Source: Octopus vulgaris
Taxonomy: Eukaryota
Assembly: GCA_951406725.2 (NCBI GenBank)
Contig: OX597832.1
Span: 30,504,001 to 30,568,000, forward strand
Direction: 5' to 3'
DNA length: 64,000 nucleotides
Each line of letters starts with the position of its first letter. The first letter of the stretch is position 1. The notes beneath the pieces were generated by a model. The model searched no databases. It saw only the letters and a list, made by a program, of their open reading frames with translations, and was not told where the DNA came from. The translations under genes were made by a program, and so were the position numbers. Positions 21,821 to 58,703 of this stretch are shown here, piece after piece.

Positions 21821-21860
21821 ATATTGGCTTAGATTTTCCTTTGGGGCTGGCCAGATCGGA

Positions 21861-21917
21861 GCAATCTCAAGATTAATCAGCCGAAATTGCGAAGATGATC
21901 CGGTTCTTGACTGAAGA
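21861..21917 (+). ncRNA. permuted (pseudoknotted) hammerhead-like motif
   Basis: gcaAT-C-tcaaga-N10-GAAA-ttgc-N14-tcttga-CTGAAGA. Confidence 0.6.
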
Positions 21918-22073: not shown

Positions 22074-22077
<4 letters not shown>

Positions 22078-22518
22078 ATTGAAGAAATGGAGCTGAACGA
22101 AGTTTGAACAGAAATCGTTTTATTTCATTCTACACGTGTTTCGAAAGGCACAATTTACCAAAATCCGATTGAATAATGAGACCATATTGTGTCTTTCTCT
22201 TCAGGAAGAAATAGGAAATCCGTTGGAAAAAACAAAAACAGAACAGAGGCGGAGCAAAACAAATCGAACTAAGCTCCTAAGAGCCCATGGCAAAACTGTT
22301 GCCATGGGCTCTTAGGAGCTTAGTTCGATTTGTTTTGCTCCGCCTCTGTTCTGTTTTTGTTTTTTCCAACGGATTTCCTATTTCTTCCTGAAGAGAAAGA
22401 CACAATATGGTCTCATTATTCAATCGGATTTTGGTAAATTGTGCCTTTCGAAACACGTGTAGAATGAAATAAAACGATTTCTGTTCAATCTTCGTTCAGC
22501 TCCATTTCTTCAATTCAC
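22074..22518. repeat. near-perfect 445-bp palindrome (220-bp arms, 5-nt loop), inverted Penelope-pLTR-like
   Basis: Arms 22074-22293 and 22299-22518 with one mismatch seen; element continues to ~22683 and sits between (TA)n tracts. Confidence 0.9.
22381..22470 (+). ncRNA. type I hammerhead ribozyme (mirror copy on minus strand at ~22122-22211)
   Basis: ttc-CTGAAGA-gaaagacacaat...attgtgcctttc-GAAA-c-acgt-GTA-gaa; stems I, II and III pair; palindromic ACACGTGT. Confidence 0.7.
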
Positions 22519-27649: not shown

Positions 27650-28176
27650 GTACAGGGGAATCTCCTTGTTGAGTCACCCTGGTAAAGTCTACGCTAGGGG
27701 CCTGAATTAGAGATGTGGGAAAGTTGCCGAGCCCAAGCTAGCGGAGGTACATTGTGGCTTCCGTCCATCACAACTCGCAAGATATTCATTCTGCAACAGG
27801 TCTTCAAGAAATAGTGTGAATATTACTTTCTAGATCTTGGAAAGGTATATGGCCGCGTGCTGCGGGACATACAGGAGGTGGGGATTAATGGGCAACTTTT
27901 GGTTGCTGTGGGGTCCCTATACGAAGGCCCAGATGTTTGTGTTCGGATAAATGTTGCTAAGTCGAAACTTTTCAACGTGGATATTGAATTTCGGTTGAGG
28001 TGCGCAATGTCACCTCGCCTTTCCATAGTTTTTATGAACAGGATTGACAAAGGCAGCCATTGTGGAAGTGATTTCACAAACGGTGGGTGTGGGGTTGGTC
28101 GGCTAATATTTGCAGACGATAGGATGCTGCTTGGCCATTCAGAAAGTGATCTCCAGCATGCACTGAATGTATTCGC
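27650..28176 (+). mobile_element. RTE-like LINE reverse transcriptase relic
   Basis: YRGISLLSHPGKVYAR, FLDLGKVY, MSPRLSIVFM and LIFADD motifs with stops and frameshifts; truncated by a SINE. Confidence 0.85.
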
Positions 28177-28346
28177 TGCCGTATTTCGTCTGCCGTTACG
28201 TTCTGAGTTCAAATTCCACCGAGGCCGACTTTGCCTTTCATCCTTTCGGGGTCGATAAATTAAGTACCAGTTGCGTACTGGGGTCGATCTAATCGACTGG
28301 CCCCCTCTCCCAAAATTTCGAGCCTTGTGCCTAGTGTAGAAAAGGG
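28177..28346 (+). mobile_element. SINE family B (tail variant 2)
   Basis: Core motif plus tail ggccccctctcccaaaatttcgagccttgtgcc. Confidence 0.85.
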
Positions 28347-30310: not shown

Positions 30311-30382
30311 GAAACCATTGTTATCATTACGCTGCTTTCTCCTTTGGGGGGACAAACACAGACACACAAACATATATATTCT

Positions 30383-30712
30383 CCTTGTCCTGTCTTTTAC
30401 TGCTTTTATTTGTACTGTCTTTACTGTCCTGTTTTTGTTACCACGTTTACCCCTCCGCAAAAAATCTCAAATTTTATTTAATTTGCTTTGCGGGAAGGAC
30501 TGTTTCAACGAAGTCGTGTGTCGCCTTTACCTTCGAAACACGGAGTAGACGAAACAGAGGCGGCTGAAGAAGGGGAATTTTCCTTGTGTTGTATGTCTTG
30601 TACTCTGTTTTTTCGTTGTTTAAAACAAATGTCTGTTTCCTTGGTTTTGTTTTTATGTTTTCGTTTCTCATTGTGTTCGACGTTTTTTTCGTGTCCTGTA
30701 CCCATATATGCA
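30383..30712 (+). mobile_element. pLTR-like repeat carrying permuted hammerhead motif (30515-30570)
   Basis: Homologous to the reverse complement of 49030-49298. Confidence 0.7.
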
Positions 30713-30805
30713 TGTATATATACATATAGATGTAGGTACGTACATATATGTATGTATATATGCATATGTTTTATTTATTATTTTGTTATTATATATATAT
30801 ATATA

Positions 30806-38659: not shown

Positions 38660-39125
38660 ATACACAGAAGGACAGAAAACGCAGAAGTTCACCAATTCTC
38701 CATCAGTTATCGACCGGAGAGTCAAACGCAATTTCGACCATTATCGATAATATTGCTTCCACTCTGGAGGCACCGACAAGAAACTTGCCGGCAATGGGAC
38801 CTAAAATTAACAAGACGAAACGGGCCCGAGACGAGACCCTTAATGGACGGACGGGGAAGCAAAACAATAAACAGAATTAAAGTTGTCTTCGTGTGGTCCT
38901 AAGCCTTTATTCTGTTTATTGTTTTGTCCCATGTCCGTCCATTAACGGTCTCGTCTAGAGCCCGTTTCGTTTTGCTATGTTTATGTCCCGTTCCCGACAA
39001 GTTTCATGTCGGTGCCCCCAGAATGGAAGCAATATTATCGATAATGGCTGAAATTGCGTTTGACCCTCCGGCCGATAACTGATGAAGAATTGGTGAACTT
39101 CTGTGCTTTCTGTTCACCTGTGCAT
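38660..39125. repeat. imperfect ~220-bp-arm inverted repeat, pLTR-like, each arm with a permuted hammerhead motif
   Basis: Arms ~38660-38880 and ~38905-39125; motifs at 39029-39085 (+) and 38700-38756 (-). Confidence 0.8.
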
Positions 39126-39213
39126 TTAGTAAATGTTCGTTTATTTAATACACATTTTTAAAATTATATATAGGTAGGTCATATTTTTCGTTTGTTGTCT
39201 TTTTATTTAATCC

Positions 39214-39274
<61 letters not shown>

Positions 39275-48770: not shown

Positions 48771-48970
48771 CTCTCCGCCATGTGTGCGCACAAACACACA
48801 CATACACACCCACCTACAAACAGATCTACACAGACACACACATACACACGTATATATATATATATAATAACAATTTAAAAAATAAAACATGTGCATACAT
48901 ACATACATATATGTACATACCTACATCTATGTGTATACATACATATATATACATAAATATTATATATGTA

Positions 48971-49029
<59 letters not shown>

Positions 49030-49032
<3 letters not shown>

Positions 49033-49297
49033 TACAGGACACCACAAATAAACGTAGAACACAACGAGAAACGAAAACATACAATCAAACAAGGAAACGG
49101 ACTTTTTTTAACAACGAAAAAACAGAGTACAAGACAAACAATACAAGGAATATTCCCCTTCATCAGCTGCCCGTTTCGACTCAATGCGTGTTTCGAAGGT
49201 AAGGGCAGAACACGATCCGGCCGAAGCAATCCTTCCTGCAAAATGAATTAAATAACATTCTTTTGCAGAAAAGTGACAAGAACAGGACGTAAAAGCA

Positions 49298-49298
<1 letters not shown>
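49030..49298 (-). mobile_element. (TA)n-flanked pLTR-like repeat carrying permuted hammerhead motif (49160-49214)
   Basis: Minus strand: cgtGT-T-ctgccc-ttaccttc-GAAA-cacg-N14-gggcag-CTGATGA. Confidence 0.7.
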
Positions 49299-49606: not shown

Positions 49607-50603
49607 CACGGTGTTCAGGTTAAATTTGACTGTTTGCATAAAAGGTAAAGAAAACACAATATGCTATCCAAAAAAATAAGTATTTTTAAAGAACCAGAAA
49701 CTATCAGCTAAATTATCAGTGTTTGCTCGAAGCAGCCGTCCTCAGCTTCCATCACATCAGCCTTGGGATGGCTCTGGAACCTGGTACAAGCATTCCTCAC
49801 TGTGTGTCTGGGAAGGTCTTTGAACACCTCCTGGATGTTGCAAGCAGAGTGATTGGTGTCCTTGTTAACCGCGCCCCACACATAGTAATCCATGCGATTA
49901 CAATCGATGGAATTAGAAAGTCACAAATCGGTGCTGGTGAAGTCAACGAAATTCGCCGACCACCACTTCTGACTCTTTCCGGAGGTATGGCCAGGAACCG
50001 AATCCTGCTGCCACACATATGGCCTTTCAGCAGCAACTCTGTCCAACCAGACATTGATCACATTCTCCAGCAGCTTCACAGAACCGCCCGAAGCGAGCCC
50101 AAGGCCCTCTTCAAAGATGTGGCTATGAATCCTGCCCTGTGGACGCAGTGTGTGGACGCCTTCTGTGTCACTTCTTGCTGTAGTCCCCGTTGCAGCTGTC
50201 CGTATCATGTCTTTACAGCCTTTACAATGTTTGCAAAGCATTGAGCAGTAGTCATGATGTCGGTGTTTCGATAACCGACGCGAATCATCACGATACAGGT
50301 TACTCTTTCCCAATATTCGGATGGCTTCCAGTCCTCTTTCCCAATATTCGGATGGCTTCCAGTCCTCTTTCCCAATATTCGGATGGCTTCCAGTCCTCTT
50401 TCCCAATATTCGGATGGCTTCCAGTCCTCTTTCCCAATATTCGGATGGCTTCCAGTCCTCCATGTCAGCTAACTTTTTCTCGACCACAAACTATAATTTT
50501 TCTGCTCTCCAACGCCGTTCATTCTTCACCAATACATCAAACTGTTCCAAAAAAAACCAAAAAGGATACATAAAAAGTCGTCAAATTTAACCCAAACACC
50601 TTG
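49607..50603 (-). mobile_element. Tc1/mariner-superfamily (DD37D/maT-like) relic
   Basis: TIRs cacggtgttcaggttaaatttgac / gtcaaatttaacccaaacaccttg; WQQDSVPGH...DCNRMDYYVWG motifs. Confidence 0.8.
50303..50460. repeat. 31-bp minisatellite, 5 perfect copies
   Basis: ctctttcccaatattcggatggcttccagtc x5. Confidence 0.95.
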
Positions 50604-57333: not shown

Positions 57334-57461
57334 TACCTGACATTAGAAGCATATTCGTGGGGGCTTGTTTCTCTATTCTACCTCATATTTGTGCTTATAA
57401 GATCGAATGTTTTGCTTCTTTTAATAAAATTCAGTAATGTTTATATTTTCCAGTGTCCAAC

Positions 57462-58703
57462 ATGTATGCATTCAATGATCTCATAGTACGTACGTATATC
57501 ATATTTTTATTAACTAATAATTTTCTCGCCTCAGCTGACCCACCGTCAGCAAACTACGACAAACTACAACAATACAAACATGACATTTCTGTCCCAATTA
57601 ATGATTTTACTTTGAAAATATTCAAACAACTTCTTGATTCAAAGACAGGAAACATACTCTGGTCACCATTTCTTGTTAGTATCAGTCTGTCGTTCATTCA
57701 AATGGCTGATAAAATGAACTCTACAGAGAAAATCCAATCTCTGCTTTATCCATCTGTTTCATGGGAATTATTCCATCATAGTTTCACAGAATATTTGAAA
57801 ACTGTTCAAGATTTATCAAATTTCCAGTTATCCAATAAATTATATATTGATCCGGTAATTCTTCCGAACATCAACATTAATATTAGCAAATATTACTTTT
57901 TGGAAATAGATGAAATTAATCCAAGAACTATTGGTAAATTAAGTGATAAGTTCCATAAAAATAGAATCAACAATTTTATGTCATTTGGCAACACAAATGA
58001 AGAAATATTTGCTGTATTGGTGAACAGCTTGCATTTCCAAGGATTTTGGGAAAATCAATTTAACCGAAAGTTTACCATGAGAGAAACCTTTTATGTGACA
58101 GAAAAGCAAACAGAAGTTGTTGAAATGATGTATACAGAAAACTATTTTGCTATAAAGTCAGATGAACGTTTTAGTTTTAGGAGTCTAGAAATACCTTTGG
58201 CTGGCAACAGGTTTAGCTTCTACATCATTCTTCCGGATGATATTGAAGGAATTACATCAATAGAAAAACAGCTGACATCACGACTCTTGTGGCAAATTAT
58301 CGCCAATAAGGCTTCTCCGAGAAATGTTGCTTTGATTTTGCCCAAGTTTCAAATGAAATCTAACTTTACTTTTCAAGATATTTTATTCAAAGAAACGACT
58401 GACCATCTCTTCAATTTGGAAAATAACAACTTAACGAATACCCACGTTCACTTAATTGACATTCTTCACCAAGGTTTTCTCAATTTCAATGAACTGGGAA
58501 CAACAAGCAGTCCTGCTACTGTCCGAAAATCGAGTCATTTGATTGAAAAAAAAGCAAAACATGAAACCTCTTTCACTGTTAATCATCCATTTTTATTCTT
58601 TATTGTTGACAAAACTTCTTTCATGATTCTGCATCTGGGAAAATGCACTCACCCTGACAGCAGTACGGTACCCCATCAACAAAATACCCATGATGAGCTT
58701 TGA
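57462..58703 (+). CDS. serpin-family protein with signal peptide and C-terminal HDEL, single coding exon
   Basis: 413-aa ORF from ATG 57462, preceded by ttttccag acceptor at 57453; GNILWSPF, LVNSLHFQGFW, LILPKFQM, NELGT and FTVNHPFLFFI serpin motifs; ends HDEL*. Confidence 0.93.
   Translation: MYAFNDLIVRTYIIFLLTNNFLASADPPSANYDKLQQYKHDISVPINDFTLKIFKQLLDSKTGNILWSPFLVSISLSFIQMADKMNSTEKIQSLLYPSVSWELFHHSFTEYLKTVQDLSNFQLSNKLYIDPVILPNININISKYYFLEIDEINPRTIGKLSDKFHKNRINNFMSFGNTNEEIFAVLVNSLHFQGFWENQFNRKFTMRETFYVTEKQTEVVEMMYTENYFAIKSDERFSFRSLEIPLAGNRFSFYIILPDDIEGITSIEKQLTSRLLWQIIANKASPRNVALILPKFQMKSNFTFQDILFKETTDHLFNLENNNLTNTHVHLIDILHQGFLNFNELGTTSSPATVRKSSHLIEKKAKHETSFTVNHPFLFFIVDKTSFMILHLGKCTHPDSSTVPHQQNTHDEL

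Follow-up and report, generated by a model that had tools for sequence, protein, structure and literature searches.

A predicted split-core, pseudoknotted hammerhead RNA in an interspersed octopus repeat likely carried by Naiad-type Penelope-like retroelements

Hammerhead permutations and Penelope-like retroelements

The closest described relatives of the RNA considered here are the type SGC hammerheads (HRIMA-1 and variants), in which the cleavage block (S) is followed by the GAAA block (G) and the CUGANGA block (C) (Eckert et al. 2023, PMC10085705). As far as the available text of that study shows, six block permutations are thought possible, CUGANGA is assumed to be inseparable from its helix II strand, and arrangements that separate the two are excluded from the searches. 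The published patterns for block C require CUGAUGAG or CUGAUGAUG, one of the two SGC descriptors allows a base between positions 9 and 10.1, and H is demanded at position 17. The published SGC examples derive from metatranscriptomes, with none in genomes of known organisms according to the same portion of the paper, where non-circular forms are absent from such genomes except for one weak type GCS case. Previously, non-circular hammerheads had come from metatranscriptomes and a few metagenome or bacterial sequences.

Hammerheads also reside in non-coding retro-repeats of a few hundred bases. Those of Penelope-like elements (PMC4209133) and retrozymes (PMC7229834) are described, in the accessible parts of these papers, as type I and often dimeric and tandem; for non-LTR retrozymes we also drew on the available text of a preprint (10.64898/2026.07.22.740005). 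Penelope hammerheads usually have a base between 9 and 10.1 and cleave weakly in vitro (PMC4209133, accessible sections). Naiads have been reported to lack canonical hammerheads; the consulted part of that work lists eight "half cores", 35 to 50 nt apart and including octopus and squid families, and gives (TA)n as the target (Craig et al. 2021, PMC8557442).

The locus examined here is a repeat copy at 30380 to 30790 of the window, by which we mean the whole 64-kb stretch of octopus DNA that was analysed. Its predicted fold resembles type SGC in the S, G, C order, the pseudoknotted core, the 3-nt linker between stems I and II, and a helix that joins the far ends of these two stems. In contrast to type SGC, the helix II strand lies upstream of the cleavage block and not after CUGANGA, and two extra helices fill the step from A9 to G10.1, an arrangement that the block rule in the available text of PMC10085705 excludes. 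It also differs from the metatranscriptomic SGC examples cited there in being located in chromosomal animal DNA. Type CSG, represented in that text by two published metagenome sequences, is the same strand circle with another opening, but its block C is intact, whereas it is split in the window fold.

With Naiads, as far as they are covered by the consulted part of PMC8557442, the repeat shares the (TA)n target, the presence of core words close to the 3' end and, as judged by eye, the fold; unlike them, it is short and non-coding, and no fold was given there for the half cores. The Penelope and retrozyme class (PMC4209133, PMC7229834, accessible text) has in common with it a hammerhead within a short non-coding retro-repeat and tolerance at the 9-10.1 step, but in the window repeat the stems are full, the order is non-circular and the copies are single and dispersed. 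The pseudoknot-containing hammerhead of PMC11300833 likewise combines a core with an extra helix and a pseudoknot; however, A9, G10.1 and C11.1 form a local stem there, and its accessible text describes no detached helix II strand. A hammerhead with helix II detached from CUGANGA was not found in the literature searched (including PMC3088659, PMC10162972 and PMC13725137, with subscription papers largely outside the search) or in the available text of PMC6962438, PMC544870, 10.64898/2026.09.16.752053 and a 2026 zeta-virus preprint. The same literature yielded no fold for the Naiad half cores; bioRxiv supplements were outside the search, and an earlier description is possible.

Taken as a whole, the evidence makes it probable that the copy at 30380 to 30790 is an inactive member of a common repeat whose RNA is predicted to form a split-core, pseudoknotted hammerhead, with a Naiad-type Penelope-like element as the likely carrier.

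The repeat copy and its predicted fold

The copy is an interspersed repeat of approximately 410 bp on the plus strand, inserted within a (TA)n tract, and its ends are approximate. An extent of 30383 to 30712 had been proposed in the initial annotation. This proved too short, as a further 86-nt tail, 88% identical, is common to this copy (30 kb) and a sister copy (49 kb) and runs to about 30790 and about 48866, respectively. The sister copy occupies 48866 to 49298 on the minus strand, is likewise flanked by (TA)n, and harbors its ribozyme at 49273 to 49155 with a GUU site at 49209. The two are 81% identical over 243 nt. To the right, the 30-kb copy is flanked by another repeat with at least seven matches within the 64-kb window, and by eye the left flank was assigned to the same repeat. 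A tandem or permuted-circle origin gained no support: internal repeats of the element measure only 8 to 15 nt, and contigs of the family end by running into (TA)n. The tandem repeats with a type I hammerhead that define non-LTR retrozymes were not found either; the copies are single and their block order is non-circular.

All sequence blocks that the initial annotation had recognized between 30515 and 30570 are present there. Block S (30515 to 30526) comprises a stem III strand, U16.1 (30519), position 17 (30520) and a stem I strand. Block G (30530 to 30542) contains the 3' strand of helix II, the GAAA core (30535 to 30538) and a stem III strand, and the second stem I strand runs directly into the CUGANGA core (30558 to 30570, core at 30564 to 30570). 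CUGANGA and GAAA, together with U16.1-A15.1 and G10.1-C11.1, were found in the 30-kb copy, the 49-kb copy and a third copy described below. The annotation's framing as a canonical hammerhead did not hold, because the block order is non-circular and the partner of helix II most likely lies upstream, outside 30515 to 30570. Canonical type I, II and III readings of the site were rejected, as was the use of a second GAAA at 30551 as the core.

The helices between 30450 and 30506 and the 3' tail are absent from that earlier description. In the proposed fold, the 5' strand of helix II, starting at G10.1 and detached from CUGANGA, is located at 30494 to 30498 and pairs with 30530 to 30534. The five bases right after A9 (30571 to 30575) pair with 30450 to 30454 in a closing helix; the alternative reading of this 3' strand is a bulged A followed by a weak type SGC stem II. 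A hairpin, P0 (30455 to 30493), ends directly before G10.1, so that A9, the closing helix, P0 and G10.1 come together without an unpaired base. A helix of 30500 to 30506 with 30551 to 30557 connects stems I and II at their far ends. With stems I and III, the fold therefore has six helices. Bases 30571 to 30585 can also form a local hairpin that would compete with the closing helix, a possible off state.

Both copies form 6, 5 and 5 pairs in helices I, II and III. The upstream helix II consists of five Watson-Crick pairs from G10.1-C11.1 onward in each of them, with -4.6 kcal/mol compared to 0.0 kcal/mol for the downstream alternative. The closing helix keeps 5/5 pairs in both copies through three C-G/U-G changes, and P0 keeps 7/7 with one double change and pair probabilities of 0.79 to 1.0. 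The joining helix has seven pairs in the 30-kb copy and a shifted 6-bp version in the 49-kb copy. Across the five alignable helices, 28/28 pairs are formed in both copies with three double changes, compared to 39 to 54% pairing and no double change in slid controls; a two-row shuffle of the same helices was weak (74/500). When the core was fixed and the flanks were shuffled, a 5-bp upstream helix II arose in 83/5,000 and 145/5,000 trials, whereas helix II together with the 5/5 junction arose in 0/5,000 and 2/5,000. Between the 30-kb and 49-kb copies, no double change is seen in helix II or in the closing helix. The latter is weak in the 49-kb copy, at -0.3 kcal/mol, where the bases involved favor an extended P0.

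Single-strand folding gave no excess stability (z of -0.39 to 0.68), which is expected because the helices cross. For the same class of model, nested folding assigns helix II a probability of 0, pseudoknots being outside it. Rfam produced no match at the gathering threshold in the window and no hammerhead among 26 matches up to an E value of 10, an outcome to be expected when the order is non-nested. With any block order allowed, a strict hammerhead descriptor retrieved only the 30-kb and 49-kb copies in the window, with no match in 300 shuffled windows; a looser version gave 43 matches in 300.

For stem I, the initial annotation had described two pairs altered by double changes and a third by a C-G/U-G change between the two copies, with pairing retained throughout. 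We obtained the same result: the pairs in the 30-kb and 49-kb copies are U-G/C-G, C-G/U-A, G-C, C-G, C-G and U-A/C-G, so that 5 of 12 positions differ and 6/6 pairs hold. Given 5/12 changes and the observed share of transitions (16/28), the chance of six intact pairs with two double changes is 0.008 to 0.009, rising to 0.04 to 0.08 where 90 to 100% of changes are transitions; as a post hoc estimate from two sequences, this is modest evidence. A column-shuffle control on the two rows was uninformative for stem I (128/500).

A hammerhead cleavage site follows the NUH rule, which requires H at position 17 and would make GUG inactive. The 30-kb copy has G at 30520, and the other three copies in the window have U, C and A. 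A slipped GUC register at this site was rejected, as it would need two extra bases before C3. Since GUG occupies the site, the 30380 to 30790 copy is likely dead, in agreement with what the annotation had suspected, while the family itself has GUC.

Recurrence in the family, in the window and in Naiad 3' ends

Family variation was assessed with contigs from public sequencing runs. Parts of the stretch were contained in 20 of 24 listed runs, of which four, one per organism label, were compared at 80% likeness. Thousands of contigs matched the repeat in each (8,379, 6,493, 5,694 and 4,057). The data consist of contigs only; their depth does not give a copy number, and each strand of a pair was counted on a different contig set. 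As depth over 30515 to 30547 was about 4% of that of the flanks in one run (X1), variant shares sample part of the family. Position 17 was C in 82 to 88% of depth in each of the four runs, which bears out the check on a non-G family base proposed with the initial annotation.

The covariation of stem I that had been claimed within the family was also recovered, since variant shares match across pairs. The change 30522 C>T (31 to 44%) is mirrored by 30562 G>A (32 to 44%), 30524 C>T (16 to 23%) by 30560 G>A (6 to 20%), and 30526 T>C (30 to 40%) by 30558 A>G (41 to 70%), while 30563 G>A (50 to 66%) turns U-G into U-A. Similarly, 30517 T>C (14 to 25%) in stem III is accompanied by 30540 A>G (44 to 79%), and 30500 C>T (5 to 16%) in the joining helix by 30557 G>A (5 to 25%). 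Double changes occur in stem I and, across family contigs, in stem III. In a consensus of loose contig ends (53 to 78 contigs per run), the two stem III changes occur in phase, position 17 is C, and a third stem I strand is present whose partner was found in other contigs; the loose ends continue into TA-rich sequence. The variant table lists 40 of 75 rows, and statements on absent variants are limited to these 40. Fourteen of them fall in proposed helices, and 12/14 preserve pairing, either by themselves or together with a partner change in the table. For the 30492 variant, the partner change is present only in the 49-kb copy, and 30450 C>A (3 to 21%) breaks the outer pair of the closing helix. 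Among these 40 rows there was no variant in the core or in helix II, which is mild evidence, as about 2.7 were expected by length.

Two further copies of the fold are located in the window. A four-strand descriptor, which matched 5 times in 1,000 shuffled windows, identified a third copy at 21845 to 21917 on the plus strand, with 6 bp in helix II, 5 bp in stem III, 6 bp in stem I, 7 bp in the joining helix and an AUC site at 21866. It has no alignable likeness to the family and uses different pairs in all helices; its upstream helix II is present, with 0 pairs in the SGC register. Junction helices were not convincing in this copy, and a candidate junction match was discarded as sequence that, by eye, belongs to a neighboring repeat. 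The copy has a T-rich tail, an A run and (TA)n, and its 5' end abuts another repeat. A looser descriptor, for which 64 matches occurred in 1,000 shuffled windows, returned a decayed fourth copy at 38990 to 39090 on the plus strand (stem I of 6 bp, stem III of 5 bp, AUA site, P0 of 6 bp). It shows U.U at 10.1-11.1 followed by three pairs, and a 4-bp closing helix after one extra A. By eye, an inverted repeat precedes this decayed fold and a T-rich tail with (TA)n follows it (38760 to 39230), a Penelope-like insertion pattern. Blocks were compared by coordinates because a MAFFT alignment of three copies was off by one column in the block register. Five loci from a pattern scan, one in metagenome contigs and one plus three in viral contigs, all failed the descriptor and were set aside as chance.

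Several other features were observed in the window. A 445-bp near-perfect palindrome beside a (TA)n tract (22074 to 22518) carries in each arm a Penelope-style type I hammerhead of the dimer-dependent kind, whose stem II is long and whose stem III is palindromic and lacks a loop; the core of the plus arm is at 22388 and 22450. An uninterrupted frame of 421 codons (57438 to 58703) matches Pfam Serpin (E value of 3e-59). Frames resembling by eye fragments of a LINE reverse transcriptase (27815 to 28258) and of a mariner-type transposase (49921 to 50490) had no Pfam match, and none of the four candidate frames tried besides the serpin frame matched a reverse transcriptase in Pfam.

In the Naiad supplement (PMC8557442), we inspected by eye, without a script or null, about 350 nt of the 3' end in 53 of the 54 consensi, as well as 60 of the 62 occurrences of one core word. 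The split fold, whole or partial, was seen in 11/53 ends from five phyla. Eight consensi (Amil, Anas, Aacu, Plae, EuTe, Obim, Ovul and Bfor) show the full plan with the junction, in unrelated sequences and with a non-G position 17 as judged by eye; Bfor has a stem I of merely 2 bp and two U.U before the closing helix, and Aacu has two mismatches. Part of the split order can be seen in 3_Chem and 2_Movir, and Esco shows it weakly and with mismatches. By name and file order, the split-form Naiads come from ctenophores, cnidarians, an acanthocephalan, an arthropod and cephalopods. The ends of the octopus Naiads have the blocks in S-G-C order with perfect stems I and III, and the strand that precedes GAAA finds its partner upstream of the cleavage block. 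By eye, the 49-kb copy shares stem I and a 13-nt run into the core with two octopus Naiads. Three motifs of 10 to 11 nt from the 3' end of the repeat had no matching 3' end in the supplement, and no autonomous element sharing this end was found there. The short non-autonomous repeat is likely carried by Naiad-type Penelope-like retroelements.

Six nematode Naiad consensi (1-3_Nbra, Hcon, Hpol and Asuum) contain, by eye, an intact type CSG hammerhead. Neither form was recognized in 36 of the 53 ends inspected over roughly 350 nt; these may carry the motif farther from the 3' end or use a different ribozyme. By eye, the end of Naiad-1_Movir in the PMC8557442 supplement resembles a twister ribozyme. 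Other conserved motifs are common to bivalve and hemichordate Naiad ends.

Alternative explanations, proposed mechanism and implications

The stem I changes could be chance transitions or CpG decay in an AT-rich repeat, with the fold being a reading artefact. Indeed, each of the five stem I differences is a transition, one of the pairs has CpG on both strands, and a comparison of two sequences has little power. However, the mirror CpG changes (30523 and 30561) are absent among the 40 of 75 variant rows listed, the descriptor nulls are as low as 0 in 300 and 5 in 1,000 windows, and the same six-helix plan recurs in unrelated families, which leaves this explanation very improbable. A plain type SGC hammerhead, with an intact block C, a bulged A after CUGANGA and the next four G pairing with the strand before GAAA, would account for the S-G-C order, the 3-nt linker between stems I and II and the presence of a joining helix. 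Its four pairs form in both copies, and its extra base between 9 and 10.1 is usual in Penelope hammerheads and allowed by one of the two SGC descriptors in the text available to us. The helix II it needs, however, includes two G-U pairs at 0.0 kcal/mol in the 30-kb copy, has 0 pairs in the third copy and at most two in the fourth, and by eye reaches at most two in split-form Naiads; moreover, the joining helix links the upstream strand and not the strand after the core. We regard an intact block C as unlikely, if less so than an artefact.

The remaining alternative is a hammerhead-derived module that does not cut, or cuts with the help of protein, and serves the retroelement as a binding signal for reverse transcriptase. 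It is consistent with copies keeping both sides of the predicted cut site and with the weak in vitro activity of Penelope hammerheads (PMC4209133, accessible sections). Against it, unrelated sequences retain every catalytic position, G10.1-C11.1, U16.1-A15.1 and a base other than G at position 17, and an intact type CSG takes the same place in six nematode Naiads. It is the least improbable of the three alternatives and still unlikely. The preferred reading remains the split-core hammerhead, and the repeat family appears to carry a new hammerhead wiring, modelled here from base pairing, that is common to Naiad retroelements.

In the split-core hammerhead, the strands would follow one another as helix II 5' strand, joining strand, cleavage block, GAAA block, joining strand, and stem I with CUGANGA. 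This wiring corresponds to the published type SGC circle opened between A9 and G10.1, and SGC, CSG and the split form may be regarded as three openings of one strand circle. The 9-10.1 step is a plausible place to open the chain because a bulged base is tolerated there in Penelope (PMC4209133) and SGC hammerheads, as far as the accessible text of the former goes. Stacking of the closing helix and P0 would give a four-way junction in which A9 is kept adjacent to G10.1. GUC members of the family would then cut themselves after position 17 by the usual G12/G8 chemistry (PMC11300833, available text), whereas the GUG copy at 30 kb would not cut.

Self-cutting would set an end of the retrotransposing RNA, and the reverse transcriptase and endonuclease of Naiads may copy the non-coding element into (TA)n tracts. 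Tandem or read-through transcripts may be processed by the cutting, a role suggested in the accessible part of PMC4209133 for other Penelope elements. Because full-length copies retain both sides of the predicted cut site, an uncut, tandem or circular template RNA would be needed. We think it somewhat probable that, in five or more animal phyla, Naiads and their short passengers rely on an active hammerhead. Its wiring would be a seventh one, beyond the six block permutations, with the chain opened between A9 and G10.1 and the core restored by a perfect four-way junction.

A natural exception to the block rule would change how genomes are searched for ribozymes, and the split form would offer a position within the core that can take up entire helices. 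The seeming lack in Naiads of a ribozyme that is present in other Penelope-like elements becomes directly testable. If the proposal is true, the "missing" ribozyme of Naiads would be explained and, with the nematode CSG forms counted as well, animal genomes would commonly contain non-circular hammerheads in high copy number.
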